Shown: piece by piece, positions 11,824 to 40,022 of the stretch
How positions within the stretch are numbered: position 1 is the first letter of the stretch
How the letters are laid out: each line of letters begins with the position of its first letter
Assembly (NCBI GenBank): GCA_015064635.1
Contig: SVRV01000005.1
Location: 32,858-96,857 of the forward strand
Source: Oscillospiraceae bacterium
GTDB lineage: Bacteria; Bacillota; Clostridia; Oscillospirales; SIG627
Length of the DNA: 64,000 nucleotides
Direction: 5' to 3'
The notes under the pieces: generated by a model
What the model was told of the DNA's origin: nothing
The model's database searches: none
The model's input: only the letters and a program-made list of their open reading frames with translations
Translations under genes and position numbers: made by a program

Positions 11824-13194
11824 TTAATATCCGAAGTGCTTTTCAGTTTCAGCAACTGCTTCTTCGATGATATCAAGACCCTTGAGAGCTGCTTCGTCAT
11901 CGAGGATCATAGGAGGAGACATACGGAGGATGTGTCCTGAGGGAACCCAAGCAAGACCCTTTTCGAATGCCTTCTGATAAATCATAGTACCTGCTTCAGC
12001 GAAAGGCTCCTTGGTATTTCTGTCCTTAACAACTTCGATAGCCTGGAGACAACCGATAGCACGAACATCACCGATGATGGGATGTCTGTCCATCATTTCC
12101 TTCATTCTCTTAAGCATGATTTCGCCAAGGTGAGCCGAACGCTCATTGAGGTTTTCTTCCTCGATAACCTTGATTGACTCAAGAGCTGCTGCACAAGCCA
12201 TGGGGTTTCCGCCGTAGCTTGAAGAAGCTGAAATCTTTTCAATAGCGGGAGCAAGCTTGTCGGAAACTGCAAGAGCTGTTACGGGGAATCCGTTACCGAA
12301 GCCCTTACCGAGTGTTGTGATGTCCGCTGTAACGTTCCAGTGATCCATAGCAAGGTACTTACCTGTTCTTGCCATACAGTTAAGAACTTCGTCAGCGAAG
12401 AGAAGGATATCTCTCTTGTCGCAAAGAGCACGAAGTGCGGGAAGGAAGTCTGCGGGAGGAATGATTGAACCGCCCCAACCCTGAACGGGTTCAAGGACGA
12501 TAGCTGCAACGTTCTTACCGCCGGAAGCGCAAGCGTTGTCAAGCATACCTTCGATCATGTGAATGTAAGGTGTTGAATCCTTCCAAGCCTCCTCGGGTGT
12601 TCTGCCGAAGAAGTCACGGTAGGGATTGGGTCTGGGAACAAGCATGAAACCGGGAGCTCTCATGTGTGTGTCGGGGCCTACTACCGCAAGAGAGTTAGCA
12701 CCGTAGGTCTTACCGTGGAAATCTCTGAAGAAAGAGATAAATTCCTGCTTGCCTGTTGCTGCTCTTGCACAACGGAGACCTGCTTCAACAGCTGTCGTAC
12801 CTGAATCGTAGAACTGGAATCCTGCGAAACGTCCGCCGGTGATCTCATGAAGCTTTTCAACAAGTTCCATCTTTACCTTTGTAGTAAAGTCGTGGCAGTT
12901 CATAAGATTCTTTGCGTGATGTGCAACTGCTTCGCTGATCTTGGGATGGCAGTGACCGAGACCTGTTACGTAGATACCTGATGAGAAGTCAAGGTATGTA
13001 TTACCGTCAACGTCTGTAAGTGTGTAGCCAAAGCCCTTATCAAATGTTACGGGGAAAAGTTTAACCTGGCTGGAATAGCCCTTCATGTACTTAGCGCATC
13101 TCTCATGGTACTCAACTGACTTAGGACCGGGAACAGTCTCTGTTACAATGTGAGGAACCTGAGTAAGATCCATTGATGCCCAATTTTTGCTCAT
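11824..13194 (-). CDS. Class-III (omega) PLP-dependent aminotransferase
   Basis: 456 aa. Contains SGTTAVEAGLR, LFADEV and TLGKGFGNG (Schiff-base Lys context), typical of the GABA/ornithine-aminotransferase family. Confidence 0.85.
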   Translation of the reverse strand: MSKNWASMDLTQVPHIVTETVPGPKSVEYHERCAKYMKGYSSQVKLFPVTFDKGFGYTLTDVDGNTYLDFSSGIYVTGLGHCHPKISEAVAHHAKNLMNCHDFTTKVKMELVEKLHEITGGRFAGFQFYDSGTTAVEAGLRCARAATGKQEFISFFRDFHGKTYGANSLAVVGPDTHMRAPGFMLVPRPNPYRDFFGRTPEEAWKDSTPYIHMIEGMLDNACASGGKNVAAIVLEPVQGWGGSIIPPADFLPALRALCDKRDILLFADEVLNCMARTGKYLAMDHWNVTADITTLGKGFGNGFPVTALAVSDKLAPAIEKISASSSYGGNPMACAAALESIKVIEEENLNERSAHLGEIMLKRMKEMMDRHPIIGDVRAIGCLQAIEVVKDRNTKEPFAEAGTMIYQKAFEKGLAWVPSGHILRMSPPMILDDEAALKGLDIIEEAVAETEKHFGY

Positions 13195-13382
13195 ATGTAT
13201 TTACCTCTTTCTTAATATTTGTCGGCGACCGCAGTCACCCATTTTTTACTTACGATATGATTATACACACAACTTGCAATTCTGTCAAGAGGTTTTTATG
13301 AATTTCTTTCGATTTATTTTCGTTTTGTTTTCGTTTCTTTTGCTTTTGATATAAATATTTCACATAAATATTCAATTTCCTC

Positions 13383-13411
13383 TTGAAAATCTCATATTTG
13401 TGTGATATAAT
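13383..13411 (+). promoter_or_regulatory. Sigma-A type promoter of the aro operon leader
   Basis: TTGAAA (13383-13388), 17-nt spacer, TATAAT (13406-13411). Confidence 0.6.
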
Positions 13412-13440
13412 ACTTCTATAATTTATTTAGGAGAAGTCCC

Positions 13441-13506
13441 ATGTATAAGTCATTGGCGACAACAGCATACCGATTTTATTATTACTTTACCGTAAAAATC
13501 AGGTAA
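13441..13506 (+). CDS. Candidate 21-aa Tyr/Phe-rich leader peptide (MYKSLATTAYRFYYYFTVKIR)
   Basis: ATG lies 7 nt after AGGAGA (13429-13434). 5 Tyr and 2 Phe in total, with 6 of 7 consecutive codons aromatic (13468-13488). Sits between the promoter and an intrinsic terminator upstream of aroF. Confidence 0.5.
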   Translation: MYKSLATTAYRFYYYFTVKIR

Positions 13507-13555
13507 GGTCTTTCGGTTGTGCTCTTATACGGGATATTTTATAATTTCGAATTTT

Positions 13556-13591
13556 CCCCGTAGCCGACCGGCTACGGTTTTTTTATTTTTT
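13556..13591 (+). terminator. Intrinsic terminator in the aro leader (attenuator)
   Basis: CCGTAGCC-GACC-GGCTACGG followed by TTTTTTTATTTTTT, 22 nt before the aroF ATG. Confidence 0.75.
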
Positions 13592-13612
13592 ATGAAAAGA
13601 GGCTAATTTATT

Positions 13613-14626
13613 ATGATAGTAATTTTAAAACAAAACCCCAACGAAAGCCAGGTAGCACACCTTAAAACATGGCTCGAAGGAAAAGGAATTACAGTGCATG
13701 AAAGTGTCGGTGACTCTCATGTCATTCTGGGACTTGTCGGTGACACCTCAAAGCTGGACAAAGACCTTATATCAGCGCTGGACATCGTTGAAGACGTAAA
13801 GCGTGTTCAGGAGCCTTATAAAAACGCAAACAGAAAATTCCACGCCGAGGACACGGTCATTCATGTGGGCAACACACAGATAGGTGGCGGAACACTCACT
13901 TTGATGGCGGGACCGTGCTCAATCGAAACCGAAGAGCAGATAATAGGAGTTGCAAAAGCAGTTAAGGCTGCAGGTGCTACAATCCTCCGAGGAGGCGCTT
14001 TCAAACCCCGTACATCACCTTACGCATTTCAAGGGATGGGAGCGGACGGAATTGAGCTTTTGAAGCTTGCAAAAAAGGAGACAGGCCTTCCCATCATTAC
14101 AGAAATAATGGAAATATCACAGCTTACCCTCTTTGATGACGTTGACATTATTCAGGTTGGTACAAGAAATATGCAGAACTTCAACCTTCTCCGTGAGCTC
14201 GGACGTCAGAATAAACCAGTAATGCTCAAGCGAGGAATGTCGGCAACCTATGAAGAATGGCTTATGAGTGCCGAATACATTATGGCATCGGGAAACGAAA
14301 AAATCATTCTTTGCGAAAGAGGAATACGCACCTTTGAAACACACACAAGAAACACTCTTGACATTGCCGCAATTCCCGTATTGAAAAAGCTGTCTCACTT
14401 TCCCGTTATCATCGACCCAAGCCATGCAACGGGTAAATCAGCATTGGTAGAGTCTTTGTCCATGGCAGCTGTGGCAGGCGGTGCGGACGGTATTATGATA
14501 GAGGTGCACAATGACCCCGAGCATGCCCTTTGCGACGGTCCTCAATCTATCCGTCCGGAGCAATTCGCAAAAATCTCCGCAAAGCTCTGTGCCTTGCACG
14601 GCTTTATGAAAACAATGGAGGACTAA
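13613..14626 (+). CDS. aroF: 3-deoxy-7-phosphoheptulonate (DAHP) synthase, type I-beta with an N-terminal ferredoxin-like regulatory domain
   Basis: 337 aa. The core LMAGPCSIE...GGAFKPRTSPY...DPSH is typical of KDO8PS-like DAHPS. A ~70-aa N-terminal extension resembles that of the Thermotoga enzyme. Confidence 0.9.
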   Translation: MIVILKQNPNESQVAHLKTWLEGKGITVHESVGDSHVILGLVGDTSKLDKDLISALDIVEDVKRVQEPYKNANRKFHAEDTVIHVGNTQIGGGTLTLMAGPCSIETEEQIIGVAKAVKAAGATILRGGAFKPRTSPYAFQGMGADGIELLKLAKKETGLPIITEIMEISQLTLFDDVDIIQVGTRNMQNFNLLRELGRQNKPVMLKRGMSATYEEWLMSAEYIMASGNEKIILCERGIRTFETHTRNTLDIAAIPVLKKLSHFPVIIDPSHATGKSALVESLSMAAVAGGADGIMIEVHNDPEHALCDGPQSIRPEQFAKISAKLCALHGFMKTMED

Positions 14627-14627
14627 A

Positions 14628-15464
14628 ATGAATATCGGTATAGTGGGACTCGGCCTTATGGGCGGTTCAATGGCAAAGTCAATAAAAACCAAAACGGGAC
14701 ACAGCGTTTTTGCAAAAGATACAAATGACGAAACAATGCTTATGGCAAATCTGACAGGCGCATTGGACGGTGAGCTTGATGAAAAAACGCTTCCGATGTG
14801 CGACATTGTCTTCCTTGCTTTAAGACCCGGCATTGCAATAAAATGGCTGGAAGCAAATGCAGACAATATTTCTAAAAGAGCTACCGTTGTTGACTTTTGC
14901 GGTGTAAAGAGAAACGTAACACGAAAAATGCGCGCTATCGCAGACAGCAAAGAATTCTCCTACATCGGAGGTCACCCCATGGCAGGCAAGGAGCGAGGCG
15001 GCTTCAAAAATTCAACACCTGACCTTTATGTCGGGGCTTCTATGATACTCACACCCGACGACAAAACTTTTCCCGAGCTTCTTGAGGAGCTTTCAAGTTT
15101 GTTTTACGATGTAGGTTTTTCAAGAGTTGTATATTCAACCCCCGAAGAGCATGACAGAATAATTGCTTACACCTCTCAGCTTGCACATATTGTATCAAGT
15201 GCATATATAAAATCTCCCGAAGCACAGCGACAAAGAGGCTTTTCTGCGGGAAGTTTTAGAGACATGACAAGAGTTGCATATCTTGATGAGGATATGTGGA
15301 CAGAACTGTTTTTGGAAAATTCCGATTATTTAACATATGAGCTTGACGTTCTTATTGACAGCTTAAACGAATACAAAAAAGCATTGCACGAGGGTGACAG
15401 AAACACTCTCAATTCCCTTCTCCGTGAAGGAAAAGAGTGCAAAATAAAGGCAGGCGGAAATTAA
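14628..15464 (+). CDS. tyrA: Prephenate dehydrogenase
   Basis: IGIVGLGLMGGS Rossmann N-terminus and GGHPMAGKE catalytic motif. Confidence 0.85.
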   Translation: MNIGIVGLGLMGGSMAKSIKTKTGHSVFAKDTNDETMLMANLTGALDGELDEKTLPMCDIVFLALRPGIAIKWLEANADNISKRATVVDFCGVKRNVTRKMRAIADSKEFSYIGGHPMAGKERGGFKNSTPDLYVGASMILTPDDKTFPELLEELSSLFYDVGFSRVVYSTPEEHDRIIAYTSQLAHIVSSAYIKSPEAQRQRGFSAGSFRDMTRVAYLDEDMWTELFLENSDYLTYELDVLIDSLNEYKKALHEGDRNTLNSLLREGKECKIKAGGN

Positions 15465-16534
15465 TGACAGAAATCAAAATAAACGTTCCGGACTCGTACA
15501 AGGTATACATTGGCAAGGGTATTCTCAAAAACTGTGCGGACATTTTAAAAGACAATAATATAGACGGTAAGCTTGTGGTTGTAAGTGATTCCAACGTCGC
15601 ACCTCTTTATCTCGATGTTGTGATAAATTCCTTGAAAGAGGCCGGATACGATGTATCCCACTTCATCTTCAAAGCAGGTGAGGAATCAAAGAACATCAAT
15701 ACTCTGTCCGATATTCTGGAATTCTTTGCCGAAAGCGGACTCACAAGACGCGATACCGTCATCGCTCTCGGCGGCGGTGTCACAGGCGATATGACAGGCT
15801 TTGCGGCAGGTACGTACATGAGGGGTATTTCCTACGTTCAGATACCAACGACACTTTTGGCGTGCGTTGATTCTTCGGTAGGTGGAAAGACTGCAATAGA
15901 CCTCAAGGCAGGAAAAAACCTTGCAGGACTTTTCATTCAACCGAAAGCCGTGATATGCGACACCGACACGCTGTCCACTCTCCCCGACTCGGTGTACTCT
16001 GACGGTATGGCAGAAGTAATCAAAACAGCGATTCTCAGCGATAAGGAGCTCTTTGAGGCACTTGAAAAGAAAGCTCCCCGTGAAAACGATGAATACGTTA
16101 TCGCAAAATGCGTTGAATATAAAGGAAAAATAGTTGCGGAAGACGAATTTGAGCTGGGTGTGCGAAAGCTTTTGAATTTGGGACACACTCCCGCCCATTC
16201 AATCGAAAAGCTCAGCAAATATACAATTCCCCACGGACATGCTGTTGGCATGGGGCTTTGCATTATGACACGTTCGGCATGTGCGGAGGGGTTAATTGAC
16301 GAGGAGTTAAAGGACAGAATAATCGCTTTGACAGAAAGATACGGTCTTTCGTCAAAATCCCCGTATTCCCCAAAAGAGCTTGCCGATGCTGCTTTCTACG
16401 ATAAAAAGAGAAGCGGTAATACCATAAGTGTAATAAAGATAAGAGCCTTAGGCGACTGCTTCACGGAAAAGTGCGGCATGGACGAAATTGAAGGAATATT
16501 TTCAAGAGGTAATGCCAATGGATGTAAGAATTAA
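15464..16534 (+). CDS. aroB: 3-dehydroquinate synthase
   Basis: GGGVTGDMTGFAA, PTTLLACVDSSVGGKT and NLGHTPAHSIE motifs. The ATG overlaps the tyrA TAA. Confidence 0.9.
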   Translation: MTEIKINVPDSYKVYIGKGILKNCADILKDNNIDGKLVVVSDSNVAPLYLDVVINSLKEAGYDVSHFIFKAGEESKNINTLSDILEFFAESGLTRRDTVIALGGGVTGDMTGFAAGTYMRGISYVQIPTTLLACVDSSVGGKTAIDLKAGKNLAGLFIQPKAVICDTDTLSTLPDSVYSDGMAEVIKTAILSDKELFEALEKKAPRENDEYVIAKCVEYKGKIVAEDEFELGVRKLLNLGHTPAHSIEKLSKYTIPHGHAVGMGLCIMTRSACAEGLIDEELKDRIIALTERYGLSSKSPYSPKELADAAFYDKKRSGNTISVIKIRALGDCFTEKCGMDEIEGIFSRGNANGCKN

Positions 16535-17750
16535 GCCCTCCACGCTTTCGGGAAGCATAACGGCAATACCTTCAAAATCCGATGCACACAGATTACTAAT
16601 TGCTTCACTTCTCTCGGATGAAAGCACCGAAATATATCTCCCCTCCAGCTCGGTTGACATTGACACAACGGTCATGTGTATCAAAGCACTGGGTGCCGAG
16701 GTTACAAAAAACGGAGATACTCTTTTGATAAAAAAAGGAAGCAGTGTAAACGGCGTTACGCTGGATTGTTCCGAGAGCGGCTCTACCTTCAGATTCATGG
16801 TGCCCGTGGCATCGGTGCTGTGTGATAAGGTATCATTTGTGGGACACGGAAGACTTCCCGACAGACCTATCAAGGAGTTACTTGACGCTTTAAGGAAAAA
16901 CGGTGCGGATTTTTCCTCCGACAGACTTCCTTTTACCAAGATAGGAAAACTGACAAGCGGTATATTTGAGCTGCCCGGAAATGTAAGCTCGCAGTATATT
17001 ACGGGACTGCTTTTTGCACTTCCCCTACTCGACGGTGACTCGGAGATACGTCTTACCACAAAGCTTGAATCCTCGGCGTACATAGACATTACGCTGTGGG
17101 CGCTCAAGCGTTTTGGTATCGAAATAAAAAAAGACGGAAGCTCCTTCTTCATTAAGGGTAATCAAAAATATATTTCGCCAAAGGAACTCAAGGTTGACGG
17201 AGACTGGTCAAACGCGTCATACTTTTTGGCATCGGGCGCAACAGTTGAGGGACTTGATATTAATTCTCCTCAAGGCGACAAAAAAATACTTGATGTGTTT
17301 GAAAAAATGGGTGCTGAAATAAACCGTGACAGTGGAATAAGCGTTGATACATCAAAGCTTTCGGGATGTGAAATCGACATTTCCGAAATTCCCGACACCT
17401 TCCCTACCCTTGCGGTAATGGCAACTCGTGCAGAAGGAGTCACAAGGTTTGTGGGCGGTGCAAGACTCAGAATAAAGGAAAGCGACCGCATAGAAACAAC
17501 GGCGAAGCTGCTTGGTGCACTGGGAGGCACAGTACATATATACGATGACGGTATGGACGTGGTCGGAGGCGTGCTTCACGGCGGTGAGGTTGACGGTGCG
17601 GGAGACCACAGAATAGTAATGGCGGCGGCAATTGCAGGTACGTTTGCAACGGGAGACGTCATCATACATGGTGCCGAAGCGGTATCGAAATCCTATCCGT
17701 CATTCTTTGAAGATTTTGAAAAGCTTGGAGGTAAATACCATGTCATCTGA
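16518..17750 (+). CDS. aroA: 3-phosphoshikimate 1-carboxyvinyltransferase (EPSP synthase)
   Basis: PSKSDAHRLLI, GSTFRFM, LPDRPI, KESDRI and DHRIVMAAAIA motifs. Start chosen 8 nt after AGAGG. Confidence 0.9.
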   Translation: MDVRIKPSTLSGSITAIPSKSDAHRLLIASLLSDESTEIYLPSSSVDIDTTVMCIKALGAEVTKNGDTLLIKKGSSVNGVTLDCSESGSTFRFMVPVASVLCDKVSFVGHGRLPDRPIKELLDALRKNGADFSSDRLPFTKIGKLTSGIFELPGNVSSQYITGLLFALPLLDGDSEIRLTTKLESSAYIDITLWALKRFGIEIKKDGSSFFIKGNQKYISPKELKVDGDWSNASYFLASGATVEGLDINSPQGDKKILDVFEKMGAEINRDSGISVDTSKLSGCEIDISEIPDTFPTLAVMATRAEGVTRFVGGARLRIKESDRIETTAKLLGALGGTVHIYDDGMDVVGGVLHGGEVDGAGDHRIVMAAAIAGTFATGDVIIHGAEAVSKSYPSFFEDFEKLGGKYHVI

Positions 17751-18816
17751 ATTCGGAAATAAAATAAAGATATCGGTATTCGGTCAGTCTCACGGTGAAT
17801 CAATAGGTGTTGTCATAAACGGTCTTCCCTCGGGAGAGGCTATTGATTTCAATGAGCTTCAAACCTTTATGGAGCGCCGCAGAGGTGGAAAAAACGCCTT
17901 TTCGACTAAGAGAAGCGAAGCGGATATCCCCGAATTTGTATCGGGAATAGCCAACGGAAAAACCTGCGGTATGCCACTTTGCGCCATTATAAGAAATGGT
18001 GACAAAAGGTCATCCGATTACTCCGAGCTGCTTGACAAACCCCGTCCCGGGCACGCTGATTACACTGCTTTTGTCAAATGGTCGGGCAACGCAGATATGC
18101 GTGGCGGCGGACATTTCTCAGGTAGACTCACAGCCCCCTTGTGTATTGCGGGCGGTATTGCTAAGCAGATACTTGCAAGGCGTGGAATTTATGTGGGCGC
18201 TCACCTTGACTCGGTTGCGGGAATCCGTGACAAGCGCTTTGAAATGACCGACGGAAGAGAACTTTTTGAAGAAATTGCCACAAAGGATTTCCCCGTAATT
18301 GATACAGTTGCGGGAGAACAAATGAAAGCTGCCATAATATCGGCATCGGGTGAGCTTGATTCTGTCGGAGGAGTTATTGAATGTATGGTAACGGGAATGC
18401 CTGCAGGCATAGGTGAGCCAATGTTTGACGGTGTGGAAAACCGACTTGCTTCAGCCCTTTTCGGAATCCCCGCTGTGAAGGGTGTGGAGTTCGGACGCGG
18501 ATTTGAGACTGCACTTCTCAAAGGCTCTGAAAACAATGACCCATACATTATTGAAAACGGTGAGATCAAAACAGCAACAAACAATGCAGGCGGAATACTT
18601 GGAGGAATCACAAACGGTGCACCGGTTGTCGTGAGGACAGCAATAAAGCCGACTCCGTCAATTTCACGAGAGCAGGACACTGTAAGCCTTTCCGAAATGA
18701 CTGCCCAAAAGCTTGTTGTAAAGGGACGTCATGACCCATGCATTGCACAAAGAGCGGTACCCGTAGTTGAAGCTGTAACCGCTGCGGTGTTGCTGGATAT
18801 GCTTATTGGAGGTTAA
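17740..18816 (+). CDS. aroC: Chorismate synthase
   Basis: FGQSHGESIG, RPGHADY, SGRLTAP and GRHDPC motifs. Overlaps the aroA end by 11 nt. Confidence 0.9.
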   Translation: MSSEFGNKIKISVFGQSHGESIGVVINGLPSGEAIDFNELQTFMERRRGGKNAFSTKRSEADIPEFVSGIANGKTCGMPLCAIIRNGDKRSSDYSELLDKPRPGHADYTAFVKWSGNADMRGGGHFSGRLTAPLCIAGGIAKQILARRGIYVGAHLDSVAGIRDKRFEMTDGRELFEEIATKDFPVIDTVAGEQMKAAIISASGELDSVGGVIECMVTGMPAGIGEPMFDGVENRLASALFGIPAVKGVEFGRGFETALLKGSENNDPYIIENGEIKTATNNAGGILGGITNGAPVVVRTAIKPTPSISREQDTVSLSEMTAQKLVVKGRHDPCIAQRAVPVVEAVTAAVLLDMLIGG

Positions 18817-18817
18817 T

Positions 18818-19954
18818 ATGGATATTAAAGAAACCAGAGCAAGAATAGACGAGGTAAATAATAAAATACTTGAGCTTTTCCTTGAGAGAATGGATTTGTC
18901 CGAGGAGGTTGTCAGATACAAAATCGAACACGGACTCCCCATTGTAAACAGAGAAAGAGAGCGTGAAATTCTACGTGAGGTAAAAGAAAAAGCGGGCGAC
19001 CGTGAGGAATATGCCTATCAGCTTTTCGTAAAGCTGATGGAGTTATCAAAGGCATCACAGCGTGAAATAATGTCGGGTGACACAAAAATAAAGGGCGAGA
19101 TTGAAAAGGCACTGCTACCTGCAGACAAGACCTTCCCGAAAATCGGCACTGTTGCATGTCAGGGCGTTGAGGGAGCCAATTCGCAAATTGCCGCCGACAA
19201 GCTTTTACCGAGAGGCGACATTATGTTCGTCAAGACCTTTGAAGCTGTATTCGATGCGGTTGAATCGGGATTTTCACAGTTTGGTGTTCTGCCCATTGAG
19301 AATAACACTCACGGTTCGGTAAGAAAGGTTTATGAGCTTTTACAAAAGAAGCACTTCCACATTGTCCGCTCAACCTCTCTTAATATTCGTCACGAGCTTC
19401 TTGTAAAGCCGGGCACCGAGCTTTCCGACATAAAGGTTGTCCGCTCACACGAGCAAGCTATCGGACAATGTCAGAAATTCCTGTCCACACTGGGAAAGAA
19501 TGTTATAATTGAGCCTTGTCCCAATACCGCCATGGCGGCAAAGGATGTTTCCCTCTCCGACGGAAGCATTGCGGCTATTGCAAGTCACGATTGTGCGGAG
19601 CTTTACGGGCTTTCAATACTCCGTGATGACATTCAGGACAGCGACAACAACTACACAAAATTCATTCTCATAGAAAAAGACCTTTCCATATACGCGGGAG
19701 CAAACCGAATAAGCCTTATTCTCGCAACCCCAAACAAGCCGGGTGCTCTCAGTGATATTCTTAATATGTTCTCATCCCACGGCGTGAATATGGTTAAGCT
19801 CGAAAGCTGTCCCGTCACAGGCAGAAATTTTGAGTTCATCTTCTATATTGAGCTTGATGCATCGGTAAGAGACAGCGGTGTCCTTCCCATGCTCGAGGAG
19901 CTTGAGCGTACCTGCGACGGCTTCACCTTCCTCGGTAACTATCCTGTGGTATGA
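18818..19954 (+). CDS. pheA: Bifunctional chorismate mutase / prephenate dehydratase with a C-terminal ACT domain
   Basis: N-terminal AroQ-type CM helix pattern (RIDEVNNKILELFLERMDLSEEV), a PDT core (PIENNTHGSV) and an ACT-like tail (NKPGALSDIL). GGAGG RBS. Confidence 0.85.
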   Translation: MDIKETRARIDEVNNKILELFLERMDLSEEVVRYKIEHGLPIVNREREREILREVKEKAGDREEYAYQLFVKLMELSKASQREIMSGDTKIKGEIEKALLPADKTFPKIGTVACQGVEGANSQIAADKLLPRGDIMFVKTFEAVFDAVESGFSQFGVLPIENNTHGSVRKVYELLQKKHFHIVRSTSLNIRHELLVKPGTELSDIKVVRSHEQAIGQCQKFLSTLGKNVIIEPCPNTAMAAKDVSLSDGSIAAIASHDCAELYGLSILRDDIQDSDNNYTKFILIEKDLSIYAGANRISLILATPNKPGALSDILNMFSSHGVNMVKLESCPVTGRNFEFIFYIELDASVRDSGVLPMLEELERTCDGFTFLGNYPVV

Positions 19955-21186
19955 AGTACTACGGACTTATCGGCAGACACCTCTCTCACAGCTATTCCCG
20001 TATGATTCATGTGGAAATGGGATGCAAGGAGTACTGCCATACAGAGCTTGAGCCTGAGAAGATTGCAGATTTTTTCAAGACTCATGAAATAGGCGGAATG
20101 AATGTGACCATCCCCTATAAAAAAGAAGTGTTACCCTATCTTGACAATATTTCCGAGGACGCCCGTGAGATTGGATGTGTAAATACAATCATCAGCGAAA
20201 ACGGACGTCTTGTCGGACACAATACAGATGCCTACGGCTTCCTTTGGATGGCGAAAAACGCAGGCATTGAAATGAAGGGCAAAAAGGTCGTCATCTTCGG
20301 CGGAGGCGGTGCTCAGCTTGCTGTAAGACGTGCCGCAAGTGTAGCAGGTGCAAGAGAGATAATTACCGTTTCACGAAGCGGTGAGGACAACTACGAAAAT
20401 CTGGACAGGCACGCAGATGCCGAAATACTTGTAAACGCAACTCCCGTGGGCATGTATCCCACCCCCGACGGACAGATAGTTGACCTTGACCTTTTCCCCG
20501 GCTGCGAGGGAGTGCTGGACCTTATATACAACCCCTTCCGCACAAATCTTCTGATTCAGGCTGAGGAAAAAGGAATCCCCTTTGCCAACGGACTTGCAAT
20601 GCTTGTGGCTCAGGCAAAAAAAGCGGAGGAATATTTTAAGGGGGAAAGCATCGACGAGAGTGAAATTCTCAGGATAATGAGAATAATTGCGGGAAACACC
20701 CGTAACATTGTTCTTATCGGTATGCCCGGCTCGGGCAAGAGCACAGCAGGGCGACTCCTCTCGGAGCTTTCGGGCAAGGAAATCATTGACACCGATGACG
20801 AAATTGTAAAGGCGACGGGTATGTCTATTCCCGAAATATTTGAAAAGGGTGGCGAGACTCTTTTCAGGCAATACGAAAGTGAAGCTGTAAAAAAGGCTTG
20901 TGATGGCTTTGGCAGAATAATTATCACCGGAGGCGGTGCGGTAAAGACCGAAGCGAATTTCCTGCCTTTGAAGAGAGGCGGAAGAATATATCATCTTGAA
21001 AGAGACATCACAAGTCTTCCCAGAGACGGCAGACCTCTTTCAAAAAATGCCGACCTTGAGGAGATGTACCGTCAGCGACTTCCCATGTACACACGTTTCA
21101 GAGATGCGGTGATAGATGTAAAAGAAAATGCAGATGAAACAGCCGAAATGATTTGGAGGGATTTTTGTGAAAATTCTTGTAATTAA
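19951..21186 (+). CDS. aroE: Fused shikimate dehydrogenase (AroE) and shikimate kinase (AroK)
   Basis: N-terminal half: SHSYS, NVTIPYK and NTD motifs. C-terminal ~170 aa: Walker A GMPGSGKST plus DTDDEI. ATGA overlap with pheA. Confidence 0.85.
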   Translation: MKYYGLIGRHLSHSYSRMIHVEMGCKEYCHTELEPEKIADFFKTHEIGGMNVTIPYKKEVLPYLDNISEDAREIGCVNTIISENGRLVGHNTDAYGFLWMAKNAGIEMKGKKVVIFGGGGAQLAVRRAASVAGAREIITVSRSGEDNYENLDRHADAEILVNATPVGMYPTPDGQIVDLDLFPGCEGVLDLIYNPFRTNLLIQAEEKGIPFANGLAMLVAQAKKAEEYFKGESIDESEILRIMRIIAGNTRNIVLIGMPGSGKSTAGRLLSELSGKEIIDTDDEIVKATGMSIPEIFEKGGETLFRQYESEAVKKACDGFGRIIITGGGAVKTEANFLPLKRGGRIYHLERDITSLPRDGRPLSKNADLEEMYRQRLPMYTRFRDAVIDVKENADETAEMIWRDFCENSCN

Positions 21187-21592
21187 CGGACCCAATATTA
21201 ACATGCTTGGCATCCGTGAGCCCGAAATATACGGCAAGGGAACACTTCGTGACCTTGAAAAAATGATAAGTGAAAAAGCAGACTCGCTTGGCGTTGAGGT
21301 TGAGTTTTTCCAGTCAAATCACGAAGGTGCTTTGGTTGACAAAATTCAGGAAGCCTACCAAAAGATAGACGGCATTGTCATAAACCCAGCCGCCTACACT
21401 CACACAAGCGTAGCAATCCTTGATGCGGTAAAGGCTGTGGGAATTCCAACCGTCGAGGTGCATATATCCGACCCCGACACAAGAGAGGAATTTCGCAAAA
21501 TATCCTATATCCGCAAGGCATGCATCGCTACCGTTAAGGGGAAAGGGTTTGCAGGATATCTTGAGGCAATGGATATATTGGTTAGCAGGTAA
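21167..21592 (+). CDS. aroQ: Type II 3-dehydroquinate dehydratase
   Basis: ILVINGPNINMLGIREPEIYG, SNHEG and NPAAYTHTSVA. GTG start after GGAGGG. Confidence 0.9.
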   Translation: MKILVINGPNINMLGIREPEIYGKGTLRDLEKMISEKADSLGVEVEFFQSNHEGALVDKIQEAYQKIDGIVINPAAYTHTSVAILDAVKAVGIPTVEVHISDPDTREEFRKISYIRKACIATVKGKGFAGYLEAMDILVSR

Positions 21593-21651: not shown

Positions 21652-21707
21652 TTACTCCCTCCCGAAAAACAAACTAAAACGAACTCATGTGTCAACACAT
21701 TAAATTT

Positions 21708-21740
21708 TATGCCGCATCAAAGTCTCCCTGATGCGGCATA
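21708..21740. terminator. 11-bp hairpin next to the esterase gene stop (terminator-like, no clear U-tract)
   Basis: TATGCCGCATC-(11 nt)-GATGCGGCATA. Confidence 0.4.
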
Positions 21741-21744
21741 AATC

Positions 21745-22758
21745 TTATTTGTTTTCCATTATCGCCTCGGCGATTCTCTTTGAAAGTACGGTTTTGGTCT
21801 GAGGATGGATATCATCTGTCTCGCAAATGTCTTTTGAAATAACAGTTTTGACATTATGTGTCATTTCCTGAATCTTCATCTGTGCCGCCTGAATCCTTCT
21901 CCAGCCATCGTTATCTCTGTACCAATCATCTGTGAAATAGTCGTGGAGCTGTACTACATAGAAAGGAAGGTCACCGTCTCCAAAGTCCTCTCTCCATTTC
22001 TTGATAAGGGCTTCAAGCTCAAGGTGATACACCTCCGACTCGGGCCCTACGGCATCCGATTCACCCTGATACCAGATAACACCGTTTAATTGATACGGAA
22101 ATACCTGACGGAATTGCTTTTCGTACAACGCTCCGAACTTATTCCATTTCTGATATTCTGGCATTGTGTGTCCCACAGCCTTTTTATCAATGGGGATATT
22201 TATTCCTATACTCTCGAATGTTCCCTCGGGTACCCAGCTTTCGATTATTGATGCCCCCTGACTGCAGCTTATCATACCAACTGCAATATTCTTCTTTTCC
22301 GAGATTTCCTTTCCTGCAAGGTAGCCTATCGCTGTCCAATCGTAGACAGTATCGCTTTCAGCCTTCACCCAACCGCTATCGAGGGCAAAAAGTCCGTTGG
22401 CGGTTATTTTATCCACAAAGAAGCCTCGCAGCAAATCTATTGACTTGTGCTCCTCCTTGGGAGTGTTGGTATCCTTGAGCTTAAGCTCGATATTTGACTG
22501 TCCCGCACAGAGGTACACCTCTCCCACATAGATATTGTCAATAACCGACTCGCCCTCATCCGATACAAGCTTCATAGTATAAGGTCCGCCATAGGTCATT
22601 GCGGGGAATGTGGTTGACCATTTACCATCGGTTGCGACAACTTTATTTATCTGTCCTGCAAATTCAACGCTTCCCTCTCCGTCACCTGTACCATAGACAA
22701 GCAAAGTCTTACCTGCGGGAAGAACTGCGTTTGACGAGAATATTTTATTGAATTTCAT
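21745..22758 (-). CDS. Sialate O-acetylesterase-like carbohydrate esterase (SGNH, DUF303-type)
   Basis: CAGQSNIE, WYQGESD and DDIHP motifs. 337 aa. Confidence 0.7.
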   Translation of the reverse strand: MKFNKIFSSNAVLPAGKTLLVYGTGDGEGSVEFAGQINKVVATDGKWSTTFPAMTYGGPYTMKLVSDEGESVIDNIYVGEVYLCAGQSNIELKLKDTNTPKEEHKSIDLLRGFFVDKITANGLFALDSGWVKAESDTVYDWTAIGYLAGKEISEKKNIAVGMISCSQGASIIESWVPEGTFESIGINIPIDKKAVGHTMPEYQKWNKFGALYEKQFRQVFPYQLNGVIWYQGESDAVGPESEVYHLELEALIKKWREDFGDGDLPFYVVQLHDYFTDDWYRDNDGWRRIQAAQMKIQEMTHNVKTVISKDICETDDIHPQTKTVLSKRIAEAIMENK

Positions 22759-30377: not shown

Positions 30378-31715
30378 ATGAATTACAATTCAAATCCAAC
30401 AGATTTAAAAATTACGGATATGCGCTTCGTGGACATTGACGGCGCACCCAAAAGATGTACCATTCTTCGAATAGACACAAATCAGGGAATCAGCGGTTAC
30501 GGAGAAGTCCGTGATGCGTCCTCTAAAACATATGCCCTTATGCTTAAAAGCAGAATACTTGGCGAAAACCCTTGTAATGTTGACAAGATTTTCCGAAAGA
30601 TTAAGCAGTTCGGCGGTCACTCCCGTCAGGGCGGCGGTGTTTCGGGAATCGAAATTGCCCTCTGGGACCTTGCGGGTAAGGCTTACGGTGTGCCCTTGTA
30701 TCAGCTTCTCGGCGGTAAATTCCGTGATGAGATAAGAGTATACTGCGACACCGACGTTGAAGGTAAGCACGGCGGTCACGAAATGGGACTTGCTCTCAAG
30801 CGCCGTATGGATATGGGCTTTACCTTCCTCAAGATGGACCTTGGCATCGGACTCCTACTTGATGAGCCCGGCACCCTCAATGCGCCTCTCGGCTTCATTG
30901 ACGACATGAAGAAATACGCTTCCCACATTCTCAACGTGCAGGGCGGAAGCGTTACAGCCGACATGGTAAGGCATCAGAAGAGCTATTCCATTGTCACAAC
31001 TGCACATCCCCACACAGGTATTCATCTCACCGAAAAGGGACTTGATTACCTTGAAAACTATGTAAAGGAAGCACGTGAGGTCATCGGCTACGATGTACCC
31101 TTGGCGGTTGACCATTTCGGTCACATCTGCGTTGAGGACTGCATACGCTTCGCAAGAAGAATGGAGCCATACAACCTTGCGTGGATTGAGGACATGGTGC
31201 CCTGGATGTACACAGACCAATATGTAAGACTGAGAAACTCTACCACAATTCCCGTATGTACGGGAGAGGACATCTACTTGAAGGAAGGCTTTGAGACGCT
31301 CATCAAGGCGGGCGGTGTATCGGTTATTCACCCCGACATACTCACCTGCGGAGGTGCTCTGGAGCTTAAAAAGATAGCCGACATTGCGGATGAGCACGGT
31401 GTTGCGGTGGCTGTACATATGGCTGAAAGCCCCGTGGCATGTCTTGCGGCTGTTCACACAGCGGCGGCGATGCACAATGTTCTGGCACTTGAATATCATT
31501 CGGTAGACGTACCCTGGTGGGCAGATATGGTAACAGGGATCAAGAATCCCATATTTGAAAACGGCTTTATCAAGGTTCCCGAAAAGCCCGGTCTCGGCTT
31601 TGACGATCTCAACGAAGAGGTTTTACGCGAGCACATCAACCCCAATATCCCCGGCTACTTCGAGCCGACAGACGAATGGAACAAGGAATTCTCCAACGAC
31701 AGAATCTGGAGCTGA
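30378..31715 (+). CDS. Enolase-superfamily (mandelate racemase/muconate lactonising family) acid-sugar dehydratase-like protein
   Basis: GYGEVRD, ALWDLAGKAYGVPLYQLLGG, AVDHFGH, WIED and TGED metal-ligand pattern. 445 aa. Confidence 0.8.
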   Translation: MNYNSNPTDLKITDMRFVDIDGAPKRCTILRIDTNQGISGYGEVRDASSKTYALMLKSRILGENPCNVDKIFRKIKQFGGHSRQGGGVSGIEIALWDLAGKAYGVPLYQLLGGKFRDEIRVYCDTDVEGKHGGHEMGLALKRRMDMGFTFLKMDLGIGLLLDEPGTLNAPLGFIDDMKKYASHILNVQGGSVTADMVRHQKSYSIVTTAHPHTGIHLTEKGLDYLENYVKEAREVIGYDVPLAVDHFGHICVEDCIRFARRMEPYNLAWIEDMVPWMYTDQYVRLRNSTTIPVCTGEDIYLKEGFETLIKAGGVSVIHPDILTCGGALELKKIADIADEHGVAVAVHMAESPVACLAAVHTAAAMHNVLALEYHSVDVPWWADMVTGIKNPIFENGFIKVPEKPGLGFDDLNEEVLREHINPNIPGYFEPTDEWNKEFSNDRIWS

Positions 31716-31720
31716 TTATT

Positions 31721-33058
31721 ATGAGTGAAAGAAGAAGGGTTTTAGACTTATTCGAGCAGCAAAAAGAAGAAACCAAAAAAAGAGTCAATGACGGAATAGA
31801 AAAATACCGAAAGGCAAATGCAACCATAACCGTCACGAATAAGTATGGCACACCCGTAAAAAATGCTGAAATAATCGTAAACCAAATAAAGCACGAATTC
31901 AAATACGGTGCTAATTTGTTTATGCTTGACGAACTTGAAACAGAAGAAAAGAACGAGCTGTACAAAAAACATATGAGCGCCTTCGGTAACATAGCCACGC
32001 TTCCCTTTTATTGGGATTCCACCGAGCCTGAAAAAGGAAAGACAAGATATGCCAAGGATAGCGTTAAGCTCTATCGCAGACCGCCCATAGATTTATGCAT
32101 GGAATTTTGCGAAAAGCACGGAATCGAACCAAGGGAGCACGCTCTGGCATACGATCACTTTTTCCCTAAATGGCTTTATGATGCATCAATTGATGAAATC
32201 AAAGAGGCGTTGGAGAAGCGATACCGTGAGATTTCAGAAAGATATGCGAAAAAAATTCCCACCATTGAAGTAACCAACGAAATGGAATGGGATAGGGGTG
32301 CCACAGCGCTTTACGATGATCCCGATTACGTACTTTGGTGCTTTAAATTAGCCGAAAAGTATTTCCCTGACAATCAGCTTGTCATCAACGAGCATACACG
32401 AAGTGCCTGGGCTGACAAGTGCCGTACAACAGACAAGTATTACGCCTACACCGAAGCAAATCTGCTCAAGGGTGCAAAAATTGACGCCATCGGTATGCAA
32501 TACCATATGTTCTGTCGCAGAGAGGATGAATACGATTACACAAGGCTGTATTACAACCCCGAAAATCTGTACAGACATATGGACCTTTATGCAAATTTAG
32601 GCAAGCCCTTGCAGATTACCGAAATCACAGTCCCCGCGTATTCGTGGGATGCTGAGGACGAGGCAATCCAGGCTGAAATTATTGAACACTTATACAAAAT
32701 ATGGTTCAGCCATCCGAGTGTTGAGCAGATCGTTTACTGGAATATGGTAGACGGCTATGCATACGTTGCCGATCCCGATCCCGAGAAAATAAAGAGAAGT
32801 CAGGGAGATATGACACTTGGCGAAAACTACTATTACGGCGGACTTTTAAGGTTTGATATGTCACCAAAGCCTGCATATCATACTATAAAAAATCTTTTTG
32901 ACAAGGTTTGGCGCACCAACGAAAGTCTTATATCGGACGATAGCGGCAAAGCCAAATTCAGAGGCTTCTGCGGTGAGTACGAGGTTACCGTCAACGGCAA
33001 AAAGCACGTTGTCAATTTAAGTAAAAACACGGACAATAATTTTATAATGGAGATTTAA
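31721..33058 (+). CDS. GH10-like (clan GH-A) glycoside hydrolase, paralog 1, cytoplasmic
   Basis: EVTNEME (acid/base) and QITEITVP (nucleophile) contexts, FKYGANLF, and an N-terminal ~55-aa beta-sandwich-like segment. The family call is by motif only. Confidence 0.55.
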   Translation: MSERRRVLDLFEQQKEETKKRVNDGIEKYRKANATITVTNKYGTPVKNAEIIVNQIKHEFKYGANLFMLDELETEEKNELYKKHMSAFGNIATLPFYWDSTEPEKGKTRYAKDSVKLYRRPPIDLCMEFCEKHGIEPREHALAYDHFFPKWLYDASIDEIKEALEKRYREISERYAKKIPTIEVTNEMEWDRGATALYDDPDYVLWCFKLAEKYFPDNQLVINEHTRSAWADKCRTTDKYYAYTEANLLKGAKIDAIGMQYHMFCRREDEYDYTRLYYNPENLYRHMDLYANLGKPLQITEITVPAYSWDAEDEAIQAEIIEHLYKIWFSHPSVEQIVYWNMVDGYAYVADPDPEKIKRSQGDMTLGENYYYGGLLRFDMSPKPAYHTIKNLFDKVWRTNESLISDDSGKAKFRGFCGEYEVTVNGKKHVVNLSKNTDNNFIMEI

Positions 33059-34074: not shown

Positions 34075-35055
34075 ATGAAAGAATTTCTTGAAAAATTGCT
34101 TGTTGACGGCAAGGTGAAAAATATTGCTGTGAAAGTCGGCATAGGAGACATTGTTATTGACGAGTGTTATCTGTCTTCGGAAGAAAGTATTAATGAATAT
34201 ACTCTTTTTGATATGGCTTCCGTTACAAAAATACTTGCTACCACATCTCTCATATTCATCGCACTTGACCGCGGACTTATATCACTTGACGACAAAGCTT
34301 CAAGCTTTTTCAATTGTGAGGACAGAGGCATCACGATACGGCATCTGCTTACGCACACTACTGGTGTAGGACACAGAAATCTATGTTTACCGAATTACAA
34401 CTATGACAACATCGCCGAAAGAATCCTCTCTATGCCTTTTGAAATACCTGTTGGTACAGATGTTATTTACAGCTGTCCTGCTTTTATAGTACTTGGAAAA
34501 ATATCAGAAAAGCTGCTGGGTGACAGACTTGACAGGCTTTTCAACAACCTTGTGGCAAAGCCACTTGAAATGAATCGCACATCTTTTTTGCCATTGAGAC
34601 GCGACAACATCGTAAACAGCAACCCCGAGGAAAGCGGACGAGGAAAGGTCAACGACTACAACTGCTCATTTCTCGGCGGTGTTGCGGGTAATGCCGGAGT
34701 ATTCTCATGTATGGCAGATATGACCGGATTTGCACATATGCTTCTGAATAAAGGCGGTAACATATATTCGGATAAGGTTTTTAACCTCGCAAAAAAGAAT
34801 TACACAGCCAATATGTCAGAATCCCGCGGACTTGGTTTTTTATATGTTGACAAAAGATATAAGCAGACCGGAGATTTGTTCCCCGAGGGAGCAATAGGTC
34901 ATTGTGGACACACAGGTCAGTCGGTTTTTGTTGACACAGACAGCGGCTTGTATGTTATAATATTAAGTGATGCTACACGTTACACAAGTGATTACGATAC
35001 AGTAATGAAAATGAGAGAAGAAATACATAACGAAATAAGAAAAGCAATAAAATGA
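34075..35055 (+). CDS. Serine hydrolase, beta-lactamase/esterase family (class C-like)
   Basis: SVTK (SxxK) nucleophile motif, an HTG box (GHCGHTGQS). 326 aa, no signal peptide. Confidence 0.8.
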   Translation: MKEFLEKLLVDGKVKNIAVKVGIGDIVIDECYLSSEESINEYTLFDMASVTKILATTSLIFIALDRGLISLDDKASSFFNCEDRGITIRHLLTHTTGVGHRNLCLPNYNYDNIAERILSMPFEIPVGTDVIYSCPAFIVLGKISEKLLGDRLDRLFNNLVAKPLEMNRTSFLPLRRDNIVNSNPEESGRGKVNDYNCSFLGGVAGNAGVFSCMADMTGFAHMLLNKGGNIYSDKVFNLAKKNYTANMSESRGLGFLYVDKRYKQTGDLFPEGAIGHCGHTGQSVFVDTDSGLYVIILSDATRYTSDYDTVMKMREEIHNEIRKAIK

Positions 35056-36410
35056 ATATCAAGGAATTAAGAGAGCTTTATTTCAAGGCTTATAACAATA
35101 ACAAGGACTATGTTGACAACCGCGTTGCCGACGGCATTGAAAAGCACCGCAAGGGTACTTGTCGTATACGTTTCACCGATGAAAGCGGCACTCCCCTCGC
35201 AGGTAAAAAGGTAAGGCTCACACAGAAAAGCCACGATTTCAAGCATGGTGCAAACATTTTTATGCTTGACGAATTTGAAAAAGAAGAGGATAATAAGGAG
35301 TACAGAAGATTTTTCAAGGAGCATTTCAACCTTGCAACAGTTCCCTTCTATTGGGGCGACCTTGAGCCCGAGGAGGGAAAACCGCGCTATACCACCGACT
35401 CTCCCAAGATTTACCGCAGACCGTCCCCCGACCTTTGCTTTGACTACTGTGAGGAAAACGGAATTCTGCCAAAGCTTCACTGTCTCGTATATGAGCCATA
35501 CACCCCCGATTGGCTGAAGCACAGATCTCTTAATGAGATAAAGGCAAAGTATGAGGAGCGATTTCGCCAAATTTCCGAGCGTTATTCGGGAAGACTATAT
35601 GAAATCGAAGTCATAAACGAGGTTTTCAATCTTCAGTTCTTTGAGGATAGAAGTGCTTTGAGTAAGCAAAGAGATTTAGTTGAATGGTCCTTTGAGACCG
35701 CCCAAAAATATTTCCCAAATGAAGTATTGATGATAAATGAGGGCAACCCCATACAAAAGCTTGCCCGAGAGGACTGGAGAGCACATTACTTTTTGACGGT
35801 GGAAAACGCACTGCTTCACGGTGCGGAAATTGACAAAATCGGTTTGCAGAATCATCAGTTTATAGGTGTCAATGCAAAGACACCCGAAATGTACGAAAAG
35901 GATTTTTCAAACCAAGTGAGAATGGAGCTCAATGACGTTATGTCTTATTTCAAGGGGCTTGACGTGATATCGGAGCTTGGACTTCCCTTGGAACTTACGG
36001 AAGTAACAATCCCCACCCTTGGTGAAGGACTTGAAGCGGAGGAGCTTCAGGCAGACGTCCTCCGTCTTTGGTATTCAATCTGGTTTTCACACCCATCCGT
36101 TGATGGGATAGTGTACTGGAACACCGTTGACGGATACGCTCATGTTGTGGATGACGGCAAGAGATACTGGAACGAAAACAACTGTCGGGCAGGTCTATGG
36201 CATCACGACCTCACACCCAAGAAGTCGGCTGAAATGCTGAAAAAGCTATTCACTAAAGAGTGGCACACAGAAGCCGAGCTTGTAACCGATGAAAACGGAT
36301 ATATAGGCTTACGTGGCTTCTATGGTGAATATGAGGCAGAAATCGACGGACACGTATGTAATTTTGAAATACACAAAAACGATAATAAAGAATGGAAATT
36401 TATGATATAA
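35052..36410 (+). CDS. GH10-like glycoside hydrolase, paralog 2
   Basis: 452 aa with EVINEVF and ELTEVTIP catalytic contexts. ATGA overlap with the upstream gene. Confidence 0.55.
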   Translation: MNIKELRELYFKAYNNNKDYVDNRVADGIEKHRKGTCRIRFTDESGTPLAGKKVRLTQKSHDFKHGANIFMLDEFEKEEDNKEYRRFFKEHFNLATVPFYWGDLEPEEGKPRYTTDSPKIYRRPSPDLCFDYCEENGILPKLHCLVYEPYTPDWLKHRSLNEIKAKYEERFRQISERYSGRLYEIEVINEVFNLQFFEDRSALSKQRDLVEWSFETAQKYFPNEVLMINEGNPIQKLAREDWRAHYFLTVENALLHGAEIDKIGLQNHQFIGVNAKTPEMYEKDFSNQVRMELNDVMSYFKGLDVISELGLPLELTEVTIPTLGEGLEAEELQADVLRLWYSIWFSHPSVDGIVYWNTVDGYAHVVDDGKRYWNENNCRAGLWHHDLTPKKSAEMLKKLFTKEWHTEAELVTDENGYIGLRGFYGEYEAEIDGHVCNFEIHKNDNKEWKFMI

Positions 36411-39169: not shown

Positions 39170-39174
39170 ACAAA

Positions 39175-39217
39175 GCAAAAAAATAATCTAACCAAAGTCG
39201 GTTAGATTATTTTTTTG
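39175..39217. terminator. Bidirectional rho-independent terminator
   Basis: AAATAATCTAACC-AAAGTC-GGTTAGATTATTT flanked by A- and T-runs, between convergent genes. Confidence 0.75.
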
Positions 39218-39226
39218 CTTTGTTTA

Positions 39227-39442: not shown

Positions 39443-39502
39443 TTTTTCACCTCCTTAATTTTATCATCGTACCAAAATAATAGTACATTATTAGTATAAA
39501 CG

Positions 39503-39541
39503 AAAAATATTAGTATGTCAATGTTTTTTACTAATATTTTT
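39503..39541. promoter_or_regulatory. Perfect 13-nt inverted repeat AAAAATATTAGTA-N13-TACTAATATTTTT, candidate XRE operator
   Basis: Lies in the divergent promoter region between the lipoprotein and XRE genes. It abuts TGTATAAT (39541-39548). Extra TATTAGTA / TACTAATA half-sites are at 39489 and 39559. Confidence 0.5.
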
Positions 39542-40014: not shown

Positions 40015-40022
40015 GGCATATG

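Follow-up and report, generated by a model that had tools for sequence, protein, structure and literature searches.

Within a 64,000-nt stretch of an Oscillospiraceae genome (contig SVRV01000005.1; hereafter the window, whose coordinates are used throughout), the shikimate/Phe/Tyr operon that begins with aroF is preceded by a leader in which a short open reading frame (ORF) rich in Tyr and Phe codons overlaps alternative RNA hairpins that end in an intrinsic terminator. We conclude, with a probability of roughly 0.85, that this element is a ribosome-mediated leader-peptide transcription attenuator that makes operon expression depend on how much charged tRNA-Tyr and tRNA-Phe is available. Four observations carry this reading: the anatomy of the leader, an ORF maintained as a translated frame, covariation in three helices, and the computed energetic balance between competing folds. 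A first-pass annotation of the same DNA had proposed ribosome-mediated attenuation, and its interpretation is supported by an ORF that is conserved, by a competing fold with covariation, and by scans of the window that returned no riboswitch at Rfam gathering thresholds.

Anatomy of the aroF leader

Leader-peptide attenuation is the textbook mechanism in Proteobacteria, and in leaders of the pheL/trpL/hisL class a short ORF that is led by a Shine-Dalgarno (SD) sequence and contains codons for the end product overlaps region 1 of three alternative hairpins (1:2, 2:3, and 3:4). The window leader has the same parts, namely an SD-led ORF near a promoter, a cluster of codons for the pathway products, a maintained frame, an intrinsic terminator, and an antiterminator that is mutually exclusive with a 1:2 hairpin formed over the regulatory codons (Table 1).

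The leader ORF encodes MYKSLATTAYRFYYYFTVKIR, with five Tyr, two Phe, and no Trp. Codons 10–16 (13468–13488), the regulatory Tyr/Phe codons, read Y-R-F-Y-Y-Y-F, six of seven in succession being aromatic. The first-pass annotation had described this ORF and its aromatic run, the promoter hexamers with their 17-nt spacer, a GC hairpin with a GACC loop followed by T7-A-T6, and an aroF ATG at 13613; all are found in the sequence where they had been placed, and promoter and terminator scans picked up the same sites. The AGGAGA proposed as the leader SD sequence is also present, but its distance from the ATG is 6 nt and not 7 nt as had been stated. The promoter additionally carries an extended −10 element (TGaTATAAT, 13403–13411), ranked second in a scan of 10 kb with a score of 11/12 plus TG, and has a counterpart, judged by eye, at the equivalent position in two related loci (L001 and L003); transcription of the operon is predicted to start at ~13418–13420. 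Over both strands of the window (128 kb), this is the sole short ORF that combines an SD sequence and ATG with at least five aromatic codons in seven, and searches of the window for a second leader copy, for other amino-acid leader ORFs, and for amino-acid biosynthesis operons besides the aro operon found none. The ribosome-binding site (RBS) and ATG of aroF sit 3′ of the terminator, which does not sequester them.

Alternative RNA structures in the window

Regions 1 and 2 form hairpin P1, the anti-antiterminator, in which 13464–13473 pairs with 13513–13523 in a lower stem and 13484–13491 pairs with 13502–13509 in an upper stem. The upper stem is a helix between ACTTTACC and GGTAAGGT that had been noticed by eye in the first pass, and it is contained in the minimum-free-energy (MFE) fold. 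The 5′ arm of P1 consists of the aromatic codons, and the leader TAA (at 13504) lies within its 3′ upper arm, GGTAAGG. Regions 2 and 3 form an antiterminator, in which GGUUG.GCU.....ACGGG (13515–13533) pairs with CCCGUAGCCGACC (13557–13569) by way of bases 13515–13519, 13521–13523, and 13529–13533 and spans the entire 5′ arm and loop of the terminator. Regions 3 and 4 form the terminator itself, CCGTAGCC-GACC-GGCTACGG (13558–13577), an 8-bp GC-rich stem followed by the T7-A-T6 tract (13578–13591). Because the 3′ lower arm of P1 uses the same bases, GGUUG.GCU (13515–13523) is the segment that discriminates between P1 and the antiterminator. A TACGGG/CCCGTA pairing had earlier been put forward as the competitor of the terminator; it does form, as the inner part of the longer antiterminator, but alone it is worth −6.9 kcal/mol, is compatible with P1, and is therefore not exclusive. 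A fold rivaling the terminator thus exists, as the attenuator proposal had anticipated, and it is backed by the covariation described below.

The fold of 13418–13600 has a z score of −4.6, and 0 of 200 shuffled sequences folded equally well. When a ribosome is placed over the aromatic codons, the antiterminator (−15.0 kcal/mol) and terminator (−14.9 kcal/mol) are iso-energetic, and when region 1 is removed with the 3′ arm present, pair probabilities are 0.55 for the terminator and 0.39–0.43 for the antiterminator. We modeled stalling in the window with a 28-nt ribosome footprint and nascent RNA that ended at the terminator loop. The MFE fold of this RNA was the antiterminator for footprints on codons 10, 12, 14, 15, and 16.

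From this layout we infer ribosome stalling, a kinetic order of folding, and a response to Tyr and Phe, as follows. Transcription would begin at ~13418, and a ribosome would load onto the 21-codon leader. With ample Tyr-tRNA and Phe-tRNA, the ribosome would pass codons 10–16, reach the TAA at 13504, and depart; the aromatic codons of region 1 and region 2 would then form P1 (13464–13523), the 5′ arm of the terminator would stay free, the terminator (13558–13577 plus the U-run) would form, and transcription would halt before aroF. If either charged tRNA were scarce, the ribosome would stall on Y-R-F-Y-Y-Y-F and cover region 1, and the freed region 2 (13515–13533) would pair with the emerging terminator 5′ arm and loop (13557–13569), blocking the terminator and allowing RNA polymerase to continue into aroF. 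Because the stop codon lies inside P1 and a terminating ribosome covers few bases of region 2, termination in the window would have to rely on P1 re-forming after ribosome release.

The MFE fold of the full-length leader contains one further pairing, between the leader SD/start region (GGAGAAGUCCC, 13430–13440) and GGGAU...UUUUCC at ~13531–13557. This pairing, whose conservation in relatives is not apparent, could turn leader translation off after transcription.

A leader family upstream of aroF

Scanning species-representative genomes with AroF yielded 80 loci, the best at 85% identity, from uncultured Eubacteriales, Oscillibacter, Dysosmobacter, Colidextribacter, Acutalibacteraceae, and Christensenellales, and a scan of metagenomes yielded 80 further loci with AroF identities of at most 77%. 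Of the 160 loci, 158 have a homologous leader immediately 5′ of aroF (78/80 genome and 80/80 metagenome loci). Profile matches indicate one copy per locus; second nhmmer matches within loci were minus-strand matches to the palindromic terminator and not extra copies. The leader lies 17–62 nt before aroF in all 80 metagenome loci, and nearly all of the 80 genome loci have a short Tyr/Phe-rich ORF 90–200 nt upstream of aroF, with the consensus M..IAR.AEYRYFSFTYFYGKAYFGLAE... The small ORF of the first-pass annotation is thus kept in relatives, with synonymous and Tyr/Phe-interchanging variation. Its hosts belong to the Oscillospiraceae, Acutalibacteraceae, and Christensenellales, which represent two orders of Clostridia in the NCBI taxonomy, and they include one cultured strain, Oscillibacter valericigenes Sjm18-20 (L017). 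As for the two exceptions, the leader is cut off in one (L002), and the other, an Oscillibacter metagenome-assembled genome (L061), is without a leader in the 200 nt of upstream sequence available.

When the window, L001, and L003 were left out, the resulting profile gave a single nhmmer match in the 64 kb of the window, at 13460–13584 (E = 1.3e-5). Because this leave-clade-out profile finds the window leader and nothing else, the window element belongs to the aroF leader family, of which 78 leaders make up alignment A1. The 21-codon form of the window has counterparts in L001 and L003 (MKRFLRATEYRFYYYFTSSIR and MKNILRAIDYRFYFYFTLNTR), and a metagenome scan for closer relatives of this variant found none above 77% AroF identity.

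Two deviations from the common arrangement were observed. The leader of one locus (L053, 2186–2368) lies ~140 nt farther from aroF than usual, and the 140-nt gap between the end of its terminator and the ATG points to an insertion between attenuator and gene. In a lineage of three loci (L056, L149, and L151; leader MIGRSFIAEYFYFSYYFYAKVFSVWLKS), the upper hairpin is in a shifted register, with ACUUUAGC/GCUAAAGU replacing GCUUUACC/GGUAAGGC; the stem has been rebuilt, and the Tyr/Phe run is retained.

The leader is conserved as a translated frame

Alignment A1 carries several signs of translation. First, the start column contains ATG in 71, GTG in two, and TTG in one of the 78 leaders (74/78 in total), and an SD-like motif precedes the start in 71/78. 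Second, the spacing between start codon and conserved hairpin falls into six length classes between 39 and 54 nt, each a multiple of three, and the loop of P1 measures 6, 9, or 12 nt in 74/78 leaders. Third, between the start codon and the 3′ arm of the hairpin, stop codons occur in 0/78 leaders in frame 0 and in 58/78 and 62/78 in frames +1 and +2. Fourth, each leader has 5–11 Phe and Tyr codons (mean 8.5; 26.5% of residues), with Trp making up 8 of 2497 leader residues, and the aromatic columns mix TAC, TAT, TTT, and TTC, the first position being fixed as T, the second A or T, and the third T or C (for example, 41 TAC, 29 TAT, and 6 TTT, or elsewhere 57 TTT and 14 TTC). In these columns, position 1 has an entropy of about 0, position 2 a low entropy, and position 3 a higher one. 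Finally, three codons in the unpaired loop are 67–88% Phe/Tyr despite the lack of a pairing constraint.

Selection for the peptide itself would be expected if the ORF encoded a functional Tyr/Phe-rich micropeptide and the hairpin and terminator merely ended a small gene, and the ...AEYRYFSFTYFYGKAYFGLAE... consensus does appear to be conserved as amino acids in many species. We nevertheless regard this explanation as very improbable. The N-terminus is freely variable, with an entropy of about 1.3–1.5 bits at all three codon positions, and pairing in the stem is kept by substitutions that change the peptide (FT/GK to FA/SK, FI/DK, and others). In the window clade, moreover, the loop is 10 nt long, which shifts reading onto the TAA in the conserved GGTAAGG; the C-terminal third of the peptide is thereby lost, and the conserved nucleotides are read in another frame or follow a stop. 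Because of these stem changes and this frame shift, the apparent conservation of ‘GKAYFGLAE’ in the C-terminal half is at the RNA level. The position of the element, 17–62 nt before aroF and on the same strand, argues against a separate micropeptide gene as well. Taken as sequence signatures, these patterns are those expected of a regulatory leader peptide and not of a functional micropeptide or an untranslated RNA.

Two ORF-length variants exist because the loop length either is or is not a multiple of three, which sets the stop codon beyond or inside the conserved hairpin. They constitute a natural experiment on the weight of stop-codon position in attenuation. In most members, the ORF runs on through region 2 of the 1:2 hairpin, and an unstalled ribosome would therefore clear region 2 and allow P1 to re-form behind it.

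Covariation and folding across the family

RNAalifold recovered the upper hairpin and the terminator from the leaders. Across the 78 sequences, 91.4% of cells in P1 and the terminator are paired, and 22 of 29 pairs have compensatory changes; slid partners were 30–52% paired, and 0 of 500 shuffles did as well. Taken separately, the upper stem is 98.7% paired (compensatory changes in 5/8 pairs), the lower stem 80.8% (6/10), and the terminator 95.6% (11/11). The family antiterminator, which we derived by eye, pairs CGGUUUGGCUG of the P1 3′ lower arm with CAGCCAAACCG of the terminator 5′ arm and loop; it is 90.3% paired, compared with 16–51% for slid controls, and has compensatory changes in 4/11 pairs. 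Because region 2 pairs with region 1 or 3 and region 3 with region 2 or 4, the layout is the classical four-region one.

Antitermination in the E. coli trp attenuator is kinetic, with region 3 being captured before region 4 is made. Equilibrium folding of full leaders with a footprint on every codon was uninformative for a kinetic switch; as a proxy, we instead folded nascent RNA truncated at the terminator loop. By this proxy, ribosome positions on Phe/Tyr codons leave the terminator 5′ arm sequestered in 87% of cases, compared with 19% when the footprint is on the stop codon.

Several observations weigh against attenuation as proposed here. Equilibrium folds of complete leaders almost always contain the terminator, even with region 1 masked, as a consequence of the great stability of the family terminator; because these folds favor the terminator at almost every ribosome position, the switch would have to be kinetic. 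Without a ribosome, moreover, the terminator 5′ arm is paired in 44/78 of the truncated folds, and the two states are not cleanly separated. For the window leader, the MFE fold changes when the footprint is on codon 13, with just 6 bp of the antiterminator formed; a ribosome at the leader stop hides only the first bases of region 2; and the 6-bp UACGGG/CCCGUA helix is possible in both states. The short-ORF variant is known solely from the window, L001, and L003, plus the truncated L002. Finally, the aligned leaders are kin, and the covariation counts given above are counts of sequences and not of independent events.

The preference of equilibrium folds for the terminator would also be expected if a chance ORF in an AT-rich 5′ untranslated region (UTR) were followed by a constitutive or partial terminator with no switch, and a leader rich in A and T, especially T, makes TTT and TAT codons common. 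We consider this highly improbable, as the element is conserved in 158/160 loci, has frame-specific signatures and a covarying antiterminator, and is unique in 128 kb.

The primary sequence of P1 raises a further alternative. GCUUUACC...GGUAAGGC hardly varies across ~70 of 78 species, at AroF identities to the window protein of just 70–85%, and protein-dependent attenuators use the same architecture of anti-antiterminator, antiterminator, and terminator. When Phe and Tyr are abundant, P1 might then be bound by a protein that acts like PyrR or TRAP, or by a small ligand, which would stabilize the anti-antiterminator, with the ORF being incidental or secondary. This is quite unlikely in our estimation. 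The coding signatures (the start codon and SD sequence, the in-frame indels, the 0/78 stops in frame 0, and a T-[A/T]-[T/C] pattern that extends to the unpaired loop) are hard to account for without translation; the internal and apical loops of P1 vary in length and synonymously, unlike a ligand pocket; no Rfam riboswitch or protein-binding leader matched; and reading the leader by eye, with no formal search, revealed no repeated (G/U)AG triplets of the TRAP type. The conservation of GGUAAGG can, in addition, be explained by its pairing with a functionally fixed UUU (Phe) codon. A combined form of regulation, in which ribosome stalling operates but P1 (GCUUUACC/GGUAAGGC plus CGGUUUGGCUG) also binds a protein or metabolite, seems unlikely too; the operon would then integrate stalling with a second input (Trp, chorismate, or a global regulator), and the leaders would be an uncatalogued family of such switches in at least two orders of gut Clostridia.

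Relationship to known RNA families and leaders

In Firmicutes, aromatic amino-acid genes are usually controlled by T-boxes, which speaks for a divergent T-box upstream of aroF or for some other riboswitch responding to tRNA or an amino acid. The leader RNA, however, is only ~160 nt long, with one hairpin before the terminator, and is without specifier-loop or T-box-sequence architecture. Rfam 15 at gathering level gave no match across the window and a single tRNA in 20 related loci. At E ≤ 10 over 13150–13700, five matches appeared, none of which was a T-box (RF00230) or an amino-acid leader family (Phe_leader, Trp_leader, His_leader, and others). These scans, permissive mode included, bear out the observation in the first-pass annotation that a T-box consensus is absent, and they leave a T-box or similar riboswitch an extremely remote prospect. 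The top sub-threshold match was the trpB motif (RF04312; 24 bits against a gathering threshold of 59, E = 0.5), which lay mostly on the terminator, matched P1 poorly, and was rejected. This motif, a riboswitch candidate (Narunsky et al., 2024; PMC11109978), resembles the aroF leader in combining a hairpin and a terminator in the 5′ UTRs of Firmicute genes related to amino acids but lacks a defined upstream ORF (uORF).

Among the closest mechanistic relatives is E. coli pheL-pheA (Rfam Phe_leader; PMC3082878; the mechanism of leader-peptide attenuation is described in PMC9413887), which also has a short SD-led ORF with end-product codons, alternative hairpins, and an intrinsic terminator before the first gene. 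The window leader has no sequence or model similarity to it (Rfam, E ≤ 10), and the Clostridia leaders differ in host, in a predicted reading of two amino acids, Tyr and Phe, through mixed codons, in governing the full common shikimate pathway plus both terminal branches where pheL governs pheA alone, and in that most of their ORFs span the entire 1:2 hairpin, region 2 included. The aroR leader of Corynebacterium glutamicum, a Phe-Tyr-Phe leader upstream of aroF that has been tested experimentally (Neshat et al., 2014, via PMC11802643; PMC4046766; PMC3890552), likewise places aromatic codons before a DAHP synthase gene under ribosome-mediated attenuation and responds to Phe limitation. The aroR leader is actinobacterial, has three regulatory codons compared with 5–11 in the Clostridia leaders, is reported as unresponsive to Tyr, and precedes an operon of different composition.

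A uORF motif, uORFC-13-1, precedes aroF in Acholeplasma, a relative of the Firmicutes, and in environmental sequences (24 representatives; Brewer et al., 2021; PMC8632094). Like the leader described here, it combines promoter, RBS, start codon, and one or more Phe codons in a predicted uORF directly before an intrinsic terminator. The two may be related, but by its published description the motif differs in having a U-run that encodes at least one Phe and in being limited to Acholeplasma and environmental sequences, whereas the Clostridia family has at least 158 members, a Tyr/Phe run, and the conserved GCUUUACC/GGUAAGGC hairpin; uORFC-13-1 was not among the Rfam 15 matches in the window. Classical leader-peptide attenuation also replaces T-boxes in some Firmicute lineages, Eubacteriales included, as documented for His leaders in the B. 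cereus group (PMC2965389, where exchanges between T-boxes and leader peptides are discussed) and in Peptostreptococcaceae and Erysipelotrichales (PMC9413887). Those leaders respond to a different amino acid, precede other operons, and are unrelated in sequence.

These precedents, in Firmicutes and for aroF, mean that the novelty implied in the first-pass annotation was somewhat overstated. A literature search for a Tyr/Phe leader of aroF in Oscillospiraceae or other Clostridia found none, with incomplete coverage that does not prove absence. The leaders form a large and new family in sequence, and the kind of regulator is well known. On the model presented here, they would be distinguished by mixed sensing of Tyr and Phe, control of the whole common pathway together with both terminal branches, an ORF that in most members runs through the anti-antiterminator, and a natural short-ORF variant, exemplified by the window leader.

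At least 158 loci, many from human or animal gut, thereby join the short list of classical leader-peptide attenuators in Firmicutes. Because the family is missing from Rfam 15, these 5′ UTRs currently go unannotated, or the leader may be labeled as a hypothetical small protein. The family also provides a testable model in which abundant gut Clostridia, among them Oscillibacter, Dysosmobacter, and Christensenella, control the shikimate/Phe/Tyr pathway by one switch that reads two amino acids.

The aro operon and its surroundings

NCBIfam annotation of the operon agrees with the gene content claimed in the first pass, including the absence of trp genes; the products are Phe and Tyr, and the near absence of Trp codons from the leaders matches this function. 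Shikimate dehydrogenase (aroE) and shikimate kinase (aroK) are joined in a single ORF of 411 residues. A perfect 17-bp hairpin at 21706–21742, between the end of aroQ (21592) and a convergent SASA-family esterase gene (21745–22758, minus strand), is likely to terminate transcription in both directions and so to close the aro operon.

Table 1. Leader elements and operon genes in the window. Several start codons within the operon are uncertain.
Feature	Position	Strand	Description	Basis
Sigma-70-type promoter	13383–13411	+	−35 TTGAAA 13383–13388; 17-nt spacer; −10 TATAAT 13406–13411	
SD sequence of leader ORF	13429–13434	+	AGGAGA, 6 nt before ATG	
Leader peptide ORF	13441–13506	+	21 codons plus TAA, MYKSLATTAYRFYYYFTVKIR	
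Hairpin P1, regions 1:2, anti-antiterminator	13464–13523	+	−18.4 kcal/mol	Folds
Antiterminator, regions 2:3	13515–13569	+	13 bp, −15.0 kcal/mol	
Intrinsic terminator, regions 3:4	13558–13591	+	−14.9 kcal/mol	Scan and folds
aroF RBS and start codon	13596–13615	+	AAAGAGG (13596–13602), ATG (13613)	Sequence
Regulated operon	13613–21592	+	ORFs closely packed on one strand	NCBIfam
aroF	13613–14626	+		NCBIfam
tyrA	14628–15464	+		NCBIfam
aroB	about 15437–16534	+		NCBIfam
aroA	about 16488–17750	+		NCBIfam
aroC	about 17632–18816	+		NCBIfam
pheA	18806–19954	+	Chorismate mutase/prephenate dehydratase	NCBIfam
aroE-aroK	19951–21186	+	Fusion	NCBIfam
aroQ	21167–21592	+		NCBIfam

Upstream of the aroF promoter, a perfect consensus promoter on the minus strand (TTGACA, 17 nt, TATAAT; 13260–13288; 12/12) faces a divergent gene for a class-III aminotransferase (11824–13194, minus strand). 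With this promoter opposite that of aroF, the 420-nt intergenic region carries two back-to-back promoters. Immediately 5′ of the aroF −35 element is a T-rich stretch with phased T-tracts (TTTCTTTCGATTTATTTTCGTTTTGTTTTCGTTTCTTTTGCTTTTG, 13298–13380), part of which can also be read as a Phe/Leu-rich mini-ORF, MNFFRFIFVLFSFLLLLI (13298–13354); because it lies 5′ of the predicted promoter, this stretch is likelier to be an UP-element or bent DNA than a second leader.

Two regions farther from the operon were also noted. One is a segment of ~920 nt (39170–40088) without an ORF of at least 110 residues or an Rfam match, upstream of a gene for a 650-residue SLH-domain protein. The other contains three paralogous ORFs of ~450 residues with glycoside hydrolase family 10 domains (31676–33058, 35052–36410, and 36421–37779), near which are genes for an enolase-superfamily protein, an RraA-like aldolase, a beta-lactamase-fold protein, and AraC regulators; this neighborhood looks like a cluster for xylan or uronate utilization.

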